Shown piece after piece: positions 2,930-40,831 of a stretch of 40,831 nt of DNA. The notes under the pieces were generated by a model, which saw only the letters and a program-made list of their open reading frames with translations, ran no database searches and had not been told where the DNA came from. Within the stretch, counting starts at the first letter, position 1; each line of letters opens with the position of its first letter. The DNA is from a virus. The translations under genes and the position numbers were made by a program. The stretch is taken from the IMG/VR virus record IMGVR_UViG_3300045988_122236, positions 1-40,831 of that record. One strand, 5' to 3'.

Positions 2930-3711
2930 GCTTTCGCCTCCTCCCATCCCACGATTTTCGGGACAACTCCATTCATCCGTTCTTCAAACGTGTACTCACG
3001 GTCAAACACAGGCCGCAGGTTATCAGTAGAGCGGACAGTAGTAGGCGGCTTGGATGCTTCATCCTGCCAGCGCTTTTGATTCAACCATGTAGACGGGTTT
3101 GGGATGTACTTGCCATTCTCACGCTGCCACTGGTCAGTGGTCTTGAGGTACTCAAGGCTGGACAGGATGGCGGACAGGGTTGATTCATCCGGCACAAGCT
3201 TTTTAAATTTTTTACGGGCATCTGCCTTGCCGACCTTCTTTGGGTAAGCTGCCCAGAAACGGTCAAAGGAAGGGGAATCCGCGTCAACCCCCGTGGGGGG
3301 TATAGGGGGTATTTCTTTACTTCTTACCTTCTTAGTATTAGAGGGTTTGTTGCTCGTTTGTTGCTCGTTTGTTGCTGGATTGTTAGAGTCTTTGTTGATT
3401 GCCTGATAATCGGCATAATTATTTATCGTGTAAACGGTGAATTTTGACGTTGCGTTCTTTGTTACTTCGTTTGTTGAAATTAGCTTGCCTAAAGCAGTAC
3501 GAATTTGTTGCGTTGTCAGGCCAAGCTTTACGCTCATTTCCTTGACTGTTGTAACAACTTGGCCGCGTTCCAGCGGGATACCACGATAAAATTTATCCTC
3601 ATAGCTGGCAATCAGCAGCAGGTGAATAAACACGTCCTTTGTGGGGCCGTCATCATACCAGCCCCATTCGAGCATTTTTCTGTACAGCTTGATGAAGCCC
3701 TCATTTGCCAT
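2926..3711 (-). CDS. Phage replication initiator / helicase-loading organiser (winged-helix N-terminus, DnaD-like C-terminus).
   Basis: N-terminus FIKLYRKMLEWGWY...TQQIRTALGKLIS and C-terminal FDRFWAAYPKKVGKADARKKFKKL are typical of phage replication proteins. It lies directly upstream of dnaB. Confidence 0.65.
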   Translation of the reverse strand: MANEGFIKLYRKMLEWGWYDDGPTKDVFIHLLLIASYEDKFYRGIPLERGQVVTTVKEMSVKLGLTTQQIRTALGKLISTNEVTKNATSKFTVYTINNYADYQAINKDSNNPATNEQQTSNKPSNTKKVRSKEIPPIPPTGVDADSPSFDRFWAAYPKKVGKADARKKFKKLVPDESTLSAILSSLEYLKTTDQWQRENGKYIPNPSTWLNQKRWQDEASKPPTTVRSTDNLRPVFDREYTFEERMNGVVPKIVGWEEAKA

Positions 3712-3952: not shown

Positions 3953-4396
3953 TCAAAAGGGAAGGTCGCCCTCGTCATCGTCAATCGGGGCGTAGTCTGC
4001 ATCGGGTTCGCCATGCGTGCGCTGTGAGGGGGCTGCGGGGCGCTGTGCGGCGTTCTGTGGGGTGGGGCTAGTACTTTCCTTACTGCCGCAGAAATTCACG
4101 TTCTGGGCCACGATTTCGGTCGCTGTGCGGTTCTGGCCGTTCTTGTCCTGATACTGGCGGGTCTGTAAGCGGCCATCAATGGCGATCAGCGCACCTTTGG
4201 GGAAGTATTTGCAGACAAACTCTGCGGTTTTGCCCCAGGCAGTAACGTCCAGCCAGTTGGTCTGGTTCTGGCCGCTGGCATCCTTATAGCCGGAATCGTT
4301 GGCGATGCGGAAAGAGCAGACGGATTTACCGCTGTTCGTGGTTTTGATCTCCGGGTCTTTGACCATACGGCCGATGATAGCAACAACATTCAACAT
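3953..4396 (-). CDS. ssb: Single-stranded DNA-binding protein.
   Basis: OB-fold SSB pattern (NVVAIIGRMVKDPEIK...WLDVTAWGKTAEF...IDGRLQTRQY) and acidic tail DDDEGDLPF. Confidence 0.92.
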   Translation of the reverse strand: MLNVVAIIGRMVKDPEIKTTNSGKSVCSFRIANDSGYKDASGQNQTNWLDVTAWGKTAEFVCKYFPKGALIAIDGRLQTRQYQDKNGQNRTATEIVAQNVNFCGSKESTSPTPQNAAQRPAAPSQRTHGEPDADYAPIDDDEGDLPF

Positions 4397-11923: not shown

Positions 11924-11993
11924 GTTATTAACTCCTTTTCTGTTTTGGGATATGGGGCGGGGCTGCTTTGCGCTGTGCAGCCCTGCGAGAGTT
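11924..11993 (-). repeat. Intercistronic element copy A: stop codon, 7-bp hairpin GGGCTGC/GCAGCCC, then ATCCCA and GAAAAGGAGTT SD.
   Basis: Alignable by eye to 12635..12699 with one compensatory base-pair change in the stem. Confidence 0.7.
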
Positions 11994-12458
11994 TCAGCGG
12001 TGGACAAGTCCATAATAGAAGTGCTGCAGGCCGTGACGGACAAAAGCCATATATAGCAGCCCTTGTGCATCGCTGCTGTGCGGTTCGCCCATCAAAAAAC
12101 CCTTGTGACCATCGCGGCGCAGATCGCGCGGCAGGCTGTACGGTGGCATGCAGTTCAGCATATCGTCATACACGTCGGCGGTAATGGCCTGGCCTGGGCG
12201 GGCGTTAAACGTTCCACTGCGCTCCCAGTCGGCGCGGGTGTAGGTGTCGGCGGTGGGCCGGTCGGCGGCCAGGTCGCAGTAGTGGTTGAACATCAGGCGG
12301 GCGTCCTTCGGGTCGTTGGTGTGGTAGCACTCGATTTCCCGGTCGTCGGGGCACATGGCCATTACTTCAATATAGCCACATTCGGCGGTGAGGTCTGCCG
12401 CGTCGATGATGATCTTGCGGCCTTGCCAAATGGTTTCGGTGTGGTGTAGGGTTTTCAT
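11994..12458 (-). CDS. Hypothetical 154-aa protein.
   Basis: ORF with an ATG start. Protein-like composition with no assignable motif. Confidence 0.65.
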   Translation of the reverse strand: MKTLHHTETIWQGRKIIIDAADLTAECGYIEVMAMCPDDREIECYHTNDPKDARLMFNHYCDLAADRPTADTYTRADWERSGTFNARPGQAITADVYDDMLNCMPPYSLPRDLRRDGHKGFLMGEPHSSDAQGLLYMAFVRHGLQHFYYGLVHR

Positions 12459-13411: not shown

Positions 13412-13441
13412 GTGGGTACTATACAAAAGGAGGCACGCAGA

Positions 13442-13642
13442 ATGTCAACCGATGCAAAACGGGCCGGGAATGCGCGATACTTGGCAAAGCTGAAAACTAT
13501 TACAGTAAGGATGCAGCCGGATACAGCGGAAACTATCCAGCAGGCAGCAGCAGCAGCCGGGGAAAGCGTTAACGGCTATATCCTGGCGGCAGTAGATGCG
13601 AGACTGCAACGAGAAAATCACGATAAACCGAAAAACACTTGA
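13442..13642 (+). CDS. Ribbon-helix-helix (Arc/CopG-like) DNA-binding protein.
   Basis: KTITVRMQPDTAETIQQAAAAAGESVNGYILAAVDARL gives a beta-alpha-alpha pattern. AAAGGAGG SD before the ATG at 13442. Confidence 0.7.
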   Translation: MSTDAKRAGNARYLAKLKTITVRMQPDTAETIQQAAAAAGESVNGYILAAVDARLQRENHDKPKNT

Positions 13643-13667: not shown

Positions 13668-13764
13668 GTGTATAATGAGCGAACCACGCGAGGAAGCGAG
13701 CTTCCGCGACGGGGCTCACTCATTATACAGTTTTGACGTATCAACGCGAAAAATTAGGTTTCTG

Positions 13765-13795
13765 GCGTCCAGCTTTACCGCTGGGCGCTTTTTTT
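13765..13795 (+). terminator. Strong intrinsic terminator 30 nt upstream of terS.
   Basis: 9-bp stem GCGTCCAGC/GCTGGGCGC, 6-nt loop, T7 run. Confidence 0.8.
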
Positions 13796-13824: not shown

Positions 13825-14400
13825 ATGGCAGAAAAGAAGGCGGCGCAGGCCGTCCAGCAGATGAGCAAAGCGCAGCAGGGTGTTGAGCGAGCGAGACAGC
13901 AGGCAGAGCGCGGGGAACTGATCAGCAGGAAGGGAATCCGAATGAATCCGGCCAGCCTGGCGAATCTGAGGCCGTGCCGAACGCTTGACCAGCTAGAGCC
14001 GGAAGAGAAGAGAGAACGCCAGCAGTCAGGGGGAGCGGCAAGCGGAGAAAGCAGAAGGGCGCGGAGAAGTCTTCGAGAAATCTGCCAGGCAATAGCGGAC
14101 CTTCCTCTTTCTGATAAGGAAGCGCTGACTGATGCAGGAGCGCAGAGAATCGCAGAACAGACGGAACAGCAGACCGGGAAGCCCTGCACAATATATGAAG
14201 CGATGGCGGCTGCGCAGGCGGTGCAGGCGATGGCCGGGAATGTCAAGGCGTTCGTGGCGTTCCGGGATTCTGCGGGGGATAAACCGGCCGAAAACGTAGA
14301 GATTGGCGGGGAACTGTCGGCAAACTCGCAAGCGCTACTGGATAAGTTGGCGGCTATGAATGGGCTAAAAGTCCATGAAGACGGCGAGAATAACGGATAG
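13825..14400 (+). CDS. terS: Terminase small subunit (probable).
   Basis: GGAGGG SD. NPASLANLRP...GGAASGESRRARRSLREI...AQAVQAMAGNVKAFVAFRDSAGDKP resembles Firmicute-phage TerS proteins. First late gene, upstream of terL. Confidence 0.6.
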   Translation: MAEKKAAQAVQQMSKAQQGVERARQQAERGELISRKGIRMNPASLANLRPCRTLDQLEPEEKRERQQSGGAASGESRRARRSLREICQAIADLPLSDKEALTDAGAQRIAEQTEQQTGKPCTIYEAMAAAQAVQAMAGNVKAFVAFRDSAGDKPAENVEIGGELSANSQALLDKLAAMNGLKVHEDGENNG

Positions 14401-15632
14401 ATAACGATATAACGACAAAATGTATTTCGGTAAATAAGTATTTAGCGAAATAGTCAGGTTGACGGCGGGAAAAACAAGGCGGAGGGCCTAAACCTGAAAA
14501 CGGTTCCCGGTGCCTGAAGGACGGGGCAGGGTTGGCTGATGGGGGCTATTTTTTTAGGCATGGTTCTGCCCGATGGGGCATGGGGTGGGGGTATCCCCCC
14601 CCTATGATGGGCGACCGGGGCGCGAGGACGAGCGCATACCAGTACGAATGTGTCCGTCCCCCCAGACGAATATGCAAAAAAAATCCATGCAATATGCCAG
14701 AGAACCAGGGGCTATACCAAAAAATGGAAACAAAACTACATATCCTCCCCTATAAAGGGAATGGGGTGTGAAATTTATAGGTTCCCCAAAACAAAAATGA
14801 CATACGAAAAATCCCGGTGCGGAAGTAAGTCAACCTCCTCTCTTACTATTGGGATTAGGGCCGTCCGCTTCAAGACCCAGCGGCCAAATATAAAGCGCTT
14901 TGCAGAAATGCAGGCGCTTTTTTATATGCTGCATAGCCGACCAAACACCGGCTTGTTATCCATACAAGATTTAGACAAGTATTTGGTAGGGGCGCCGCGC
15001 ACGACGCGGCAAAGGTGCAAGACCTATGTGCAGTACCAAGGCCGATGATACGGGTAAAGGTAGCAGGGCCGGACGCGGCAATTGTGTTCCCCGTTAGGCA
15101 ACCGCCACGAGCCTACTGACAGTGCGTAACATGTGGCGGGTTCTAAACAGGTTCATGCCGATATGCCCCGCTAAAGAAACTTGCAGGGCAGAGCGCATGA
15201 GCCTTATATGCCAACATAGCTTAACTGGTAAAGCCGGGCCTTATGACAGCATAGCTGCGGGTTTAGTTGTGGGTTCAAATCCTGCTGTTGGCGAAAGCTG
15301 GGTCGCGCCCACCGGTGAAAGCCCGGCGCAGGCAAAACGCGATAGATCAACCTAAACGCTGTAAGCAAAGCGGCAAAGCCGATAAGGAGCGCGGCGCGAT
15401 GGCAGACCGCAACGGGACTTCGAGAGCCTGAAAAAGTCTGCACCACATCTGCTTGCGCGGACGCTGTCACTGACGCCGTTGCGCGTTGTGGCCCACTTTA
15501 ATCAAAGCAGAAACCGCGACCAGCGGACGGGATATAAATAACGCTGGATTACGTTGCAGGTGTGCAGCTGCAACGGGTGAGACCGGCACAGCATATACCG
15601 GTAGGGCGGGTACGGGGAATGTTTGAAAAGAG
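14401..15632 (+). ncRNA. 1.23-kb ORF-free, hairpin-rich region between terS and terL. Candidate large structured non-coding RNA(s).
   Basis: No SD-led or protein-like ORF in any frame. Many short GC helices. Internal hairpin plus U-run at 14892-14923. Embedded tRNA-like module. Boundaries and strand are not established. Confidence 0.4.
15210..15293 (+). ncRNA. tRNA-like module with a canonical acceptor stem, D-arm and T-arm but an aberrant anticodon arm (19-nt loop).
   Basis: GCCAACA/TGTTGGC acceptor. GCTT-AACTGGTA-AAGC D-arm. GTGGG-TTCAAAT-CCTGC T-arm. The anticodon stem is only GGGCC/GGTTT (3 G-U pairs) around an oversized loop. Confidence 0.5.
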
Positions 15633-17120
15633 GTGGGAGCGGTGGCAACTATAAAGGACCTGCTGGAAAGCGAACGTGAGAAATGCCGCCGTGACTCGGT
15701 TTATTTTTGCGAGACCTATTGCCACATTGAGGACAAGGATGCACCGGACCTGATACAGCCGTTTACTTTATGGGACGGGCAGAAGAAAGCGCTGCGGGTA
15801 TTTGCAGAAAACCGGCTGGTATGTGTGCTGAAAGCGCGACAGCTTGGCTTTACATGGCTCGCGTTGACAGAGGTGGCAAGACTGCTGGTTTGCAATACAG
15901 GCCGAACAGCGATTGGTTTAAGCCGGTCTGAGGACGAGGCAAAAGAACTGGTGCGCAGACTTGGCGTGATTTTGCGGTATATGCCGGAGCTGATTGCAGA
16001 TGGCGACGTGGCAAACTGGCCTGGGCCATCGTTTACCATGACCACCATGCAGCTGACAGTGAAATGGCCAGACGGGCCGGAGAGCGTGTTCAAGGCGTTC
16101 CCGTCAAGCCCGGCGGCAGGACGTTCCTTTACCGCTGACTTGATTGTGATTGACGAATGGGCGTTCCAGCAGTATGCAGAGGAAATCTGGCAGGCAGGTT
16201 TTCCAACCATCAACCGGCCGCTTGGCGGACGTGTGATAGGATTGAGCACTATCAAGCTGGGGACGTTGTTTGAGGAAATATACACAAACCCGGCAAATGG
16301 TTTTTATAAGCTGTTTTTGCCGTGGAGCACAGACCCGCGCAGAACGGCGCAATGGTACGCACAGACGGTTGCAGCGCTGGGGGAAGATAAGACGATGCAG
16401 GAGTACCCTGCCACCGAAGAAGAGGCCCTGAGCGCGCCGGGAGGACGTTTTTTCAGCGAGCTGGATAAGGACAAGCACCTTGTGGACACACCGCCCACAG
16501 GGAACCTGAGACGGTATGTGGCAATTGACTATGGCCTTGATATGCTGGCTGCGCTCTGGATTGCGGTGGACGAGGAAAACCACGCCACTGTATACAGGGT
16601 GGACGGCGGGCCGAACAAGACCATAGGCGAGGCGGCAGATTTGATTTTGCGTGACAGCGAGGGTGAAGAGATAGACATGTACCTTGCGCCGCCTGACTTG
16701 TGGAACAGGAGCCAGGAGAGCGGTAAGAGCCGGGCGCAGCTGTTCAGCGAAGCGCACCTGCCGCTTGTACAGTCGAGCCGGGATTTCCCCGCCGGGTGCG
16801 CTGCCATGAAGCAATGGTTGAGCGTGGACGAGAAAACCGGGAAAGCGTGGCTGACGTTTTATAAGCCCGGTGCATTGTGGGAGTGCATGACGAAAATCCA
16901 GAAGGATGACAAGAACCCGGATGTATACGCCAAGAACCCGCACAACCTGACGCATTATCCTGACAGCCTTAGGTATTTTTGCGTTTGGTGGACAGCCCCG
17001 GCGAAGAAGCCGAAGAACATCAAGAAGCGGCAATGGACGGCGGACATGTACGAGGACTACAAGAACGCCACATCTGATGAACGGAAAATGCTGATAGAAA
17101 GGTGGGGGCACCCTGCATGA
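15633..17120 (+). CDS. terL: Terminase large subunit. The likely true start is the GTG at 15642, 6 nt after GAGGTG.
   Basis: 495 aa. ATPase Walker B-like LIVIDEWAF. C-terminal nuclease-type region. Typical TerL size and position. Confidence 0.85.
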   Translation: MGAVATIKDLLESEREKCRRDSVYFCETYCHIEDKDAPDLIQPFTLWDGQKKALRVFAENRLVCVLKARQLGFTWLALTEVARLLVCNTGRTAIGLSRSEDEAKELVRRLGVILRYMPELIADGDVANWPGPSFTMTTMQLTVKWPDGPESVFKAFPSSPAAGRSFTADLIVIDEWAFQQYAEEIWQAGFPTINRPLGGRVIGLSTIKLGTLFEEIYTNPANGFYKLFLPWSTDPRRTAQWYAQTVAALGEDKTMQEYPATEEEALSAPGGRFFSELDKDKHLVDTPPTGNLRRYVAIDYGLDMLAALWIAVDEENHATVYRVDGGPNKTIGEAADLILRDSEGEEIDMYLAPPDLWNRSQESGKSRAQLFSEAHLPLVQSSRDFPAGCAAMKQWLSVDEKTGKAWLTFYKPGALWECMTKIQKDDKNPDVYAKNPHNLTHYPDSLRYFCVWWTAPAKKPKNIKKRQWTADMYEDYKNATSDERKMLIERWGHPA

Positions 17121-40805: not shown

Positions 40806-40831
40806 CTACAAGCAAGGTATTTCTTACAGCC
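40806..40831. repeat. Right copy of the 26-bp terminal direct repeat.
   Basis: Identical to 1..26. Confidence 0.95.

Follow-up and report, generated by a model that had tools for sequence, protein, structure and literature searches.

The DNA analysed here, a window of 40,831 nt from the IMG/VR virus record IMGVR_UViG_3300045988_122236, is a circularly assembled and probably complete phage genome (~40.8 kb) with an exact 26-nt terminal repeat (1–26 = 40806–40831). Between the stop codon of an open reading frame (ORF) at 13825–14400 (+ strand, 191 amino acids) and the start, at 15633, of the large terminase gene (terL, 15633–17120, + strand; PHROG 2, E=2.4e-25) lie 1,232 nt for which an original prediction, made from the sequence alone, had proposed a giant ornate RNA. 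This gap is non-coding, mosaic and structured on the + strand, and it contains one known RNA motif and at least one new RNA supported by covariation. The predicted combination of non-coding, hairpin-dense sequence and conserved RNA structure beside a tRNA-like element was borne out by relatives and by covariation; the single giant RNA was not.

The gap is exceptionally long for this genome, other non-coding stretches being no longer than ~560 nt on a crude gene call. It contains no ORF >132 codons, and the short, overlapping ORFs that are present have no Pfam match. L001, whose TerL is 99% identical, is the closest relative, and none of these ORFs is intact in it: every one shows a length change that is not a multiple of 3 and/or an in-frame stop in its own frame, and substitutions between the gap and L001 are spread evenly over codon positions, with no third-position bias and no detectable residual frame. 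The coding hypothesis was rejected on the broken frames and the negative Pfam search; a conserved protein-coding frame in homologues, named beforehand as the finding that would contradict an RNA, was looked for in L001 and is absent there. The upstream ORF had been labelled terS (small terminase), which could not be verified: its only PHROG match is phrog_2412 (unknown function), Pfam and NCBIfam give nothing at or above the family cut-off and PDB gives only weak matches (E≥0.09), and the GP3-type TerS of sister phages is not similar to it.

The helices on which the prediction relied are all present where they were placed: GGGCAG/CTGCCC, GGGGG-tat-CCCCC (14587–14599), GCCGCG-cacga-CGCGGC (14994–15010), GTTGCAG/CTGCAAC and ACCGG/CCGGT (15553–15602), and a hairpin with a U-run (14892–14923). 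Three ATAACG copies (14390, 14401 and 14409) are likewise real, but they are not conserved in relatives such as L018 and are probably due to chance. Folding-energy z-scores were −2.9 for 14401–14930, −0.9 for 14931–15632 and −0.4 for a control taken from terL; by themselves such energies count for little, and they are uninformative for the 3′ half. Decisive against chance are conservation and covariation over >100 loci.

A mosaic of separable modules

TerL has 102 relatives in IMG/VR, and the loci recruited by it for comparison numbered 80. All members of the group with ~85% TerL identity keep the gap, at 1.06–2.34 kb; it measures 0.45–1.1 kb in the 64% group (one contig has none) and 0.3–0.5 kb in the 55–58% group. 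In relatives with ~85% identical TerL the protein of the upstream ORF is only ~50% identical, although blocks of gap DNA are 80–97% identical. Conservation is blockwise, and blocks are present or absent independently among close relatives: from left to right, related loci numbered 29 (14415–14460), 15 (14570–14670), 33 (14775–14945), 25 (14995–15145), 33 (15290–15445), 20 (15445–15550) and 39 (15548–15632). Relatives' gaps also hold differing sets of true tRNAs (Ser-GCU, Thr-UGU, Asp, Trp and Gln). The anatomy of the gap is that of a cassette array, not of one RNA. Five of its elements, described below as D, TL1, C2b, E1a and D12-methyl, are conserved structures, and D and D12-methyl each exist without the others. 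In L018, two predicted ORFs of ~91 and ~105 codons (3147–3422 and 3969–4287) are inserted between RNA modules of the homologous gap, which suggests that the island admits protein-coding ‘morons’.

Were the whole 0.7–1.2 kb to fold as one ornate RNA, possibly multimeric, related to GOLLD or ROOL or representing a new class, variable peripheral domains and embedded tRNA-like parts could be accommodated. The structured modules are indeed contiguous and on one strand, and 15272–15614 (D, the linkers E1a and E1b, together called E, and D12-methyl) is conserved together in many phages; GOLLD, too, has a variable 5′ half and may carry tRNAs in its linker, and both GOLLD and ROOL are found near phage tRNA islands (10.1101/2024.12.08.627333; PMC5737381). 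Such an RNA is nonetheless very unlikely, because the modules vary independently, ORFs are inserted between them in L018, D occurs alone in tRNA arrays and D12-methyl alone after a tRNA. A conserved terminator-like hairpin splits the region, no alignment contains a long-range helix between modules, and no contiguous conserved RNA of >500 nt with co-occurring domains was found.

Membership of a known class of large RNA was equally unsupported. Rfam 15 was searched at gathering thresholds over the whole window and permissively (E≤10) over 14200–15800, both strands. The former gave three matches: D12-methyl, the tRNA model and RAGATH-5. GOLLD (RF01998), without a match at its gathering score anywhere in the window, and ROOL (RF03087; 574-position model) both went undetected in the permissive scan, and this negative is meaningful because the same tool recovers full ROOL, at 348.5 bits, in the related loci L101 and L208. 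HEARO, OLE, raiA, group I introns, tmRNA, RNase P, 6S and group II D5/D6 (RF00029) gave no match in that scan either; its sole additional match was to group-II-D1D4-4, below threshold (24.1 bits, E=0.006; cut-off 49). This model is the only near-match in Rfam for module D and came up for it a second time at 18.4 bits (E=0.021). Group II membership was rejected and kept as a weak lead, the score falling far short of 49 and the pairs of the model disagreeing with the helices supported by covariation. BLASTN in distant mode, with the whole gap as query, found no match among 50,697 GenBank phage records, so that no cultured phage in this set has these modules. The alternative offered by the original prediction, an undescribed phage RNA, holds for part of the gap, module D being absent from Rfam, and fails for the 3′ end, where D12-methyl is already catalogued.

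Structured RNAs of the gap

Module D (15297–15442, + strand) is a real structured RNA of ~145 nt that lies outside Rfam 15. Its model comprises helices P1, P2 and P3, a small hairpin P5, and an H-type pseudoknot (S1×S2) that encloses hairpin P7 and has an A-rich third loop; S1 is GCG/CGC and S2 is GGCAGAC/GUCUGCC, all seven pairs of which covary. In an alignment of 47 sequences (A1), 96.8% of cells are paired and 15 pairs have changed on both sides, compared with 4.9±1.2 in shuffled alignments (0/500) and 2–4 when partners were slid; RNAalifold independently recovers P1, P2, P3, S2 and P7. The strand is fixed as + because the covarying helices include G.U pairs (A-U/G.U in 16 sequences, C-G/U.G in 9) that cannot form on the other strand, and the tRNA look-alikes and the D12-methyl match lie on the + strand as well. 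A further helix, CCUGA/UCAGG (columns 63–67 with 97–101), was not accepted, being 89.8% paired with many uncompensated changes. A 10-codon mini-ORF within D (AGGAG 9 nt upstream of its ATG) was also rejected, since ATG and stop are lost in other variants.

D is widespread. A 17-mer from it matches >120 viral contigs, most of them without TerL similarity or with unrelated terminases, although the diversity recovered for both D and TL1 is limited by exact-seed ascertainment (one 17-mer and one 18-mer seed). A covariance model (R1) scores 153–176 bits, with one copy per locus, and detected no extra or diverged copy in the window or in distant TerL groups. Two kinds of context recur. In many contigs 15272–15614 is conserved as a unit, homology ending exactly at the end of D12-methyl; in ~25 loci only 15300–15444 is conserved, and these are tRNA arrays of 60–125 kb phages with tmRNA and, in L101, ROOL. 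In most contexts examined in 40-kb phages a tRNA or a tRNA look-alike, not always the same one, precedes D, with only a few nt between its 3′ end and the start of D; in L218 D fits between two tRNAs, 2–3 nt downstream of the CCA of the first and ~7 nt short of the second. A genome scan found D in six Clostridia/Oscillospiraceae genomes, including Hominicoprocola fusiformis CLA-AA-H269 and Dysosmobacter segnis BX15, and in one Paludibacteraceae metagenome-assembled genome (L203), in all cases among tRNA genes.

The arrays that carry D are themselves of note. Those in L101, L208, L095, L142, L151 and L159 have >25 tRNAs, a tmRNA (72–90 bits) and matches to tRNA-Sec models, and belong to large gut phages or prophages of Oscillospiraceae; L101 (599–1208) and L208 (7081–7690, − strand) contain bona fide ROOL. 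Another locus, L200, is without the 3′ half of D, the whole of E and the opening bases of D12-methyl, with the junction immediately 5′ of the D12-methyl hairpin; shortly downstream of the junction comes CGCAACGGG, a sequence common to D and D12-methyl. This, together with the resemblance of the S1 region of D to the first hairpin of D12-methyl, suggests recombination between related sub-structures.

D12-methyl (RF02950; 15552–15614, + strand) consists of two hairpins and a conserved 3′ tail (AGGGCGGG), and ends 18 nt before the terL start. It scores 78.3 bits against a gathering threshold of 57, matching positions 1–64 of the 64-position model, and 74–94 bits in relatives. The family takes its name from a site upstream of a gene for a D12-class N6-adenine methyltransferase, a feature that does not decide membership. 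Here it precedes terL, not a D12 methylase, and in sister phages the D12 methylase is one of at least five types of downstream gene. Most often the downstream ORF is a GP3-type terS; others are a ParB-N/N6_N4 methylase, the D12 methylase or this terL, and an SPP1-type portal ORF begins ~225 nt downstream. The nearest ORF of ≥90 codons follows at 12–60 nt in most loci and at ~180–340 nt in a minority. A full or partial match to D precedes the motif in 46/58 new loci found by a scan seeded with D12-methyl. A few loci, L241 for example, have a tRNA-Met that stops 16 nt short of the searched D12 core, which by our alignment leaves ~2 nt between it and the motif. Because it precedes differing opening genes of the packaging module, D12-methyl appears, on this comparison of loci, to be a leader element of that module in general, which can apparently also occupy the position of a tRNA trailer. 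A literature search for the term ‘D12-methyl’ returned no paper using it, the supplement of PMC5737381 lying outside that search.

D and D12-methyl are joined by E1a and E1b. E1a (15449–15510, + strand; 49 distinct sequences) is a long hairpin (CUGCUUG/AAAGCAG, CGCG/CGCG, an inner stem and a 7-nt loop, UCACUGA) in which CGCG/CGCG covaries to UGCG/CGCA and an inner G-C pair to U-A; other phages have an unrelated linker (type 2) in its place. E1b (15514–15547, + strand), recognised by eye in four sequence types, is a small hairpin or pseudoknot with an A/U-rich tract (GAUAUAAAUAA). Its stem 1 is kept (CCGC/GCGG, CCGCG/CGCGG, CCGU/ACGG), as is pairing between its loop and downstream sequence (AUCCGC/GCGGAU, AACC/GGUU), again by eye. 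The tract, GAUAUAAAU at 15527–15541 (variants GAUAAAU, AAUACAAG and UAUAAAA), always follows the E1b hairpin, ~10–25 nt before D12-methyl, and might serve as a −10-like promoter element, be cut by an RNase or form the third loop in a pseudoknot.

This arrangement invites the view that D, E and D12-methyl together are a cis-acting leader of the packaging genes, that is, a sensor or an element controlling antitermination or translation, akin to a riboswitch, to HK022 put or to EAR, which is not released from the message. The usual distance of D12-methyl from the first ORF of ≥90 codons (≤~60 nt), before genes that are not homologous to one another, its compact form (two hairpins and a conserved single-stranded tail, ~64 nt) and the persistence of the E1b pairing around the A/U-rich tract all fit it. 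So do the compact pseudoknots with an A-rich third loop in E1b and in the 3′ domain of D, such folds being typical of ligand-binding or nuclease-resistant RNAs. However, D is flanked by tRNA genes in arrays without a D12-methyl match, and so is not only a leader element; in L200 D12-methyl still stands before a methylase gene although E and the 3′ half of D are gone; and by eye no terminator/antiterminator or alternative sequestering the Shine-Dalgarno (SD) sequence is apparent between D12-methyl and the terL start. On balance a purely cis-acting leader seems rather unlikely.

Upstream of D are two tRNA look-alikes. TL1 (14928–15038, + strand), known from 91 loci and 55 distinct sequences of 82–121 nt, is a cloverleaf without an anticodon loop. 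It has an 8-bp acceptor stem (5′ end GCUGCAU; 3′ end GUGCAGU-ACCA), a T-arm-like hairpin (AGGU-GCAAG-ACCU) and, in place of the D arm and of the anticodon arm with its canonical 7-nt loop and 5-bp stem, a hypervariable arm 1 and a GC-rich arm 2 (14994–15010). Among the 55 sequences arm 1 is wholly variable in sequence and length, and acceptor, arm 2 and T-arm-like hairpin persist; 7/7 sequence types, folded alone, give the same four-way junction, and L001 and L193 show a compensatory change in the acceptor (GCUACAC/GUGUAGU). Neither ARAGORN nor the Rfam tRNA model (E≤10) detected TL1. In L010, L018 and L005 its counterpart in the alignment is the 3′ portion, T-arm and acceptor, of a genuine tRNA-Thr. 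Module C2b (15039–15145, + strand; 25 loci) is the trailer that follows TL1, or tRNA-Thr in relatives; its hairpin (15102–15139) changes from CCGCCAC/GUGGCGG to CCCCCGC/GCGGGG by two compensatory pairs. Next comes a spacer hairpin (AGGUUCAUGC / GCAUGAGCCU; 15149–15204, + strand), seen in minimum free energy folds and conserved in 7–10 loci.

TL2 (15210–15293, + strand) is the tRNA-like module of the original prediction, upheld by ARAGORN and by the Rfam tRNA model (RF00005; 43.9 bits against a gathering threshold of 29, with a 17-nt insertion where the model has 5). It has a perfect acceptor stem, a D-arm and a T-arm, and its anticodon stem has three G.U pairs. A 12-nt hairpin (CAGCAUAGCUGC) after position 37 produces a 19-nt anticodon loop, and TL2, which has neither a 7-nt loop nor a sensible anticodon, is not a decoding tRNA; the hairpin accounts for the spurious ARAGORN call ‘tRNA-His (atg)’. 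The 84-nt form is kept in at least 11 sequence variants. The insertion (15246–15257) falls exactly between tRNA positions 37 and 38, the canonical intron site of archaeal and eukaryotic tRNAs and an odd one for a bacterial virus. A tmRNA-like reading of TL2 and D was rejected: ARAGORN found no tmRNA in the gap, Rfam was negative and there is no conserved tag frame.

Damaged-looking tRNAs, with intact ones at the same places in relatives, and a module whose only near-match in Rfam is a group II intron model raise the question of decay, the gap being in that case a collection of pseudogenes, dead tRNA genes or the remnant of an ORF-less group II intron. This is extremely improbable. D is 88–97% identical beside unrelated genes, with helices kept by compensatory change, which argues for selection and not decay; the architecture of TL1 is constant in 55 distinct sequences; L001 retains no residual frame. 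As for an intron, the pairs of the group II model were flagged as non-canonical and are not those that covary, RF00029 gave no match, and, though such introns usually bring an RT/maturase ORF, the gap has no ORF >132 codons and none with a Pfam match.

In the left part of the gap an AT-rich, near-perfect palindrome, TTTCGGTAAATA-ag-TATTTAGCGAAA (14425–14450, 12+12 nt, no strand assigned), lies 25 nt past the stop of the upstream ORF, is 87–97% identical in 29 relatives and is perfect in L018. Its appearance is that of an operator for a protein sooner than of an RNA element, although a hairpin is possible. A ribbon-helix-helix gene lies nearby (13412–13642). Module B (14576–14665, + strand; 15 related loci, 73–93% identity) contains predicted G-run/C-run hairpins (GGGGGUAUCCCCC; CCCCUAUGAUGGG), seen in an alignment. 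Module C (14812–14889, + strand), established by alignment and, like E1b, judged largely by eye, has a hairpin (14825–14846) with a conserved CCUCC loop and a candidate pseudoknot. Its core (14832–14886) occurs in 32 related loci, a 33rd (L014) matching only from 14850, and the 5′ 20 nt are absent from several matches. The stem takes three forms (GUAAG/CUUAC, GUCAG/CUGAC and CAGUA/UACUG) around one constant loop, and in the pseudoknot (GCGGA/UCCGC × GGCCG/CGGCC) each helix has one compensatory pair, in a single lineage. The loop, ACCUCCU, which equals the anti-Shine-Dalgarno end of 16S rRNA and is kept across all three stem versions, could pair with ribosome-binding sites, or could be an SD sequence if on the other strand; Firmicute small RNAs with C-rich loops offer a comparison.

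An intrinsic-terminator-like hairpin, AAAGCGC..GAAA..GCGCUUU with a U-run (14892–14923, + strand), follows. Its pairs are 98.6–100% kept in 21 distinct sequences, in agreement with the suggestion that it might divide the region in two. In L018 an ORF lies between module C and this hairpin, and a U/A-rich tail, TTTTAT(A/T)T, is kept 5′ of TL1 even where the upstream sequence of the phages differs. Just upstream of TL1, many sister phages have by eye, with no gene call, an SD-like motif and ATG on the opposite strand; if these mark a divergent gene, a rightward transcript would start within ~80 nt of TL1 there. Upstream of TL1 in sister phages there are, in addition, a −35-like and a −10-like hexamer that flank a hairpin or inverted repeat.

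Such an inverted repeat, the palindrome and the position just upstream of the terminase genes, where lambda-like phages have their cos sites, might indicate an element acting as DNA: a packaging site (cos/pac or terminase-binding repeats) or operators and promoters. Related contigs (L067, L017 and L008, for example) moreover end in or near the region. Contig ends are nevertheless expected here, since blocks 90% identical in co-occurring phages break assemblies, and they were rejected as evidence for cos on that ground; one contig (..._104055) is bounded by D and by D12-methyl. The ends of the window itself, the 26-nt repeat, lie far from the terminase region. Covariation of the helices passes through G.U pairs that only one strand can form, and D occurs in tRNA arrays and in regions without a TerL match. 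Packaging sites, moreover, vary together with their terminase, yet these blocks stand before terminases that are unrelated and before portal or methylase genes. A DNA-level function is therefore quite improbable as an account of the gap.

Several features were recorded outside the gap. A strong terminator-like hairpin with a T-run (13764–13789) lies between the ribbon-helix-helix gene and the upstream ORF, and contigs L013 and L028 start ~30–40 nt upstream of the position equivalent to 13803. RAGATH-5 (RF02685; 11946–11998, − strand; 52.5 bits, cut-off 50) apparently lies between two leftward genes, with a 5-nt overlap with the 3′ end of the ORF at 11994–12458; it is intergenic, by our reading, only if the next gene begins at an internal ATG near 11926. 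It recurs at the equivalent place in L011 and L006, and L034 (64% TerL group) has two twister-sister ribozymes instead.

Expression of the gap and possible roles of its RNAs

The account that we consider probable, if far from secure, is that the packaging operon opens with a non-coding ‘RNA island’ on the + strand, this gap, which is made up of independent, exchangeable small-RNA modules. How it is expressed is less certain than this overall picture. The left part (14401–14923), with the CCUCC-loop RNA, would be the untranslated tail of the upstream unit and would end at the terminator-like hairpin. A leader transcript from ~14928 would then run through TL1, C2b, TL2, D, E and D12-methyl into terL. 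TL1 and TL2 may serve in it as processing punctuation, because the parts that they retain without a canonical 7-nt anticodon loop, acceptor stem and T-arm, are those that RNase P and RNase Z need; established enzymology has it that these parts suffice for both enzymes. Cuts at the two look-alikes would free the trailers, among them D, which would become a stable small RNA of ~145 nt in the manner of genuine tRNA arrays; the 5′ leader left on the terL mRNA would be rich in pseudoknots and have D12-methyl as its last element.

Several points weigh against this scheme. Its transcription start, the cuts by RNase P and RNase Z and a stable D are inferences. A pattern scan predicted no sigma-70-like promoter in 14400–15632, although the same promoter and terminator scan also missed the bulged terminator-like hairpin at 14892–14923; because that hairpin and its U-run would terminate read-through from upstream, either an unrecognised promoter or read-through of the hairpin is required. 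TL2 has no encoded CCA, and its stems are weak and rich in G.U. In the arrays of large phages, D is not adjacent to tRNAs, lying ~80 nt from them on each side. The folding-energy z-scores of the 3′ half are unremarkable, and the pseudoknot of module C, with its single-lineage support, is a candidate of moderate standing.

As to function, the leading guess for D12-methyl and E is stabilisation of the RNA or processivity of late expression, and that for D a role in trans linked to tRNA or translation. A bolder proposal, which is put forward tentatively and is more apt to fail than to hold, is that D and TL1 are new, widespread classes of stable phage small RNA, cut from precursors punctuated by tRNA-like structures and acting in trans on host tRNA or translation, with D12-methyl as an RNA switch for the packaging module, common to many gut phages that are otherwise unrelated. 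On such a view D and TL1 would serve, for example, as decoys of the acceptor arm or as sponges, directed at defence toxins that target tRNA or at enzymes that process it.

Comparison with known systems

Phage tRNA islands harbour enigmatic RNAs, among them GOLLD, ROOL and the T4 RNAs C and D, whose function is a long-standing question. To these the present locus adds a covariation-supported RNA of ~145 nt and a family of anticodon-less cloverleaves, both abundant in phages of human-gut Clostridia, and it reassigns an orphan motif, D12-methyl, from methyltransferase genes to the leader of the packaging module generally. D and TL1 are small enough for direct biochemistry, and the Oscillospiraceae hosts include the cultured Hominicoprocola fusiformis and Dysosmobacter segnis, in whose assemblies D is found. 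For annotation, calls of the ‘tRNA-His(AUG)’ type in these phages should not be taken for decoding tRNAs.

The closest known element is D12-methyl itself (RF02950; Weinberg et al. 2017, PMC5737381), of which 15552–15614 is a full-length member on the same strand as the downstream gene. It covers only 63 of the 1,232 nt, and differs from the family as named in that, in 170+ loci, the gene behind it is the one with which the packaging module opens, whatever its kind, and D and a tRNA look-alike usually come before it. In size and position it recalls a second system. HK022 put RNA and the Bacillus EAR are cis-acting leader RNAs for processive antitermination, and D12-methyl, two hairpins of ~65 nt at the start of a long late operon, matches put in position and size class but neither put nor EAR in sequence; the likeness is one of analogy only.

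Transcripts punctuated by tRNAs provide a third comparison: in the thrU-tyrU-glyT-thrT-tufB operon of E. coli, at the 3′ end of MALAT1 (mascRNA) and in the mitochondrial punctuation model, co-transcribed tRNAs or tRNA-like structures are cleavage signals for RNase P and RNase Z that set the ends of their neighbours. TL1 and TL2 keep the same acceptor and T-arm. They differ in that cleavage is here predicted and that TL1 has an encoded ACCA and a large, conserved, GC-rich arm 2, for which a mere processing signal has no need.

With GOLLD and ROOL, the modules of the gap share a phage origin, a place beside tRNA islands and multiple pseudoknots, and in L101 and L208 ROOL shares its array with D. 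In contrast to those single RNAs of 570–830 nt, which they do not match in sequence or structure, the units of the gap are of 60–150 nt and separable, and show no evidence of multimer-forming kissing loops. RNAC and RNAD of T4 are small non-tRNA RNAs from the tRNA gene region of the phage, their roles still unknown (PMC3014915). D occupies the same kind of slot between tRNAs in L218, whereas it comes from phages of Clostridia and, in those of 40 kb, is fused to the leader of a packaging operon; no sequence relationship is expected.

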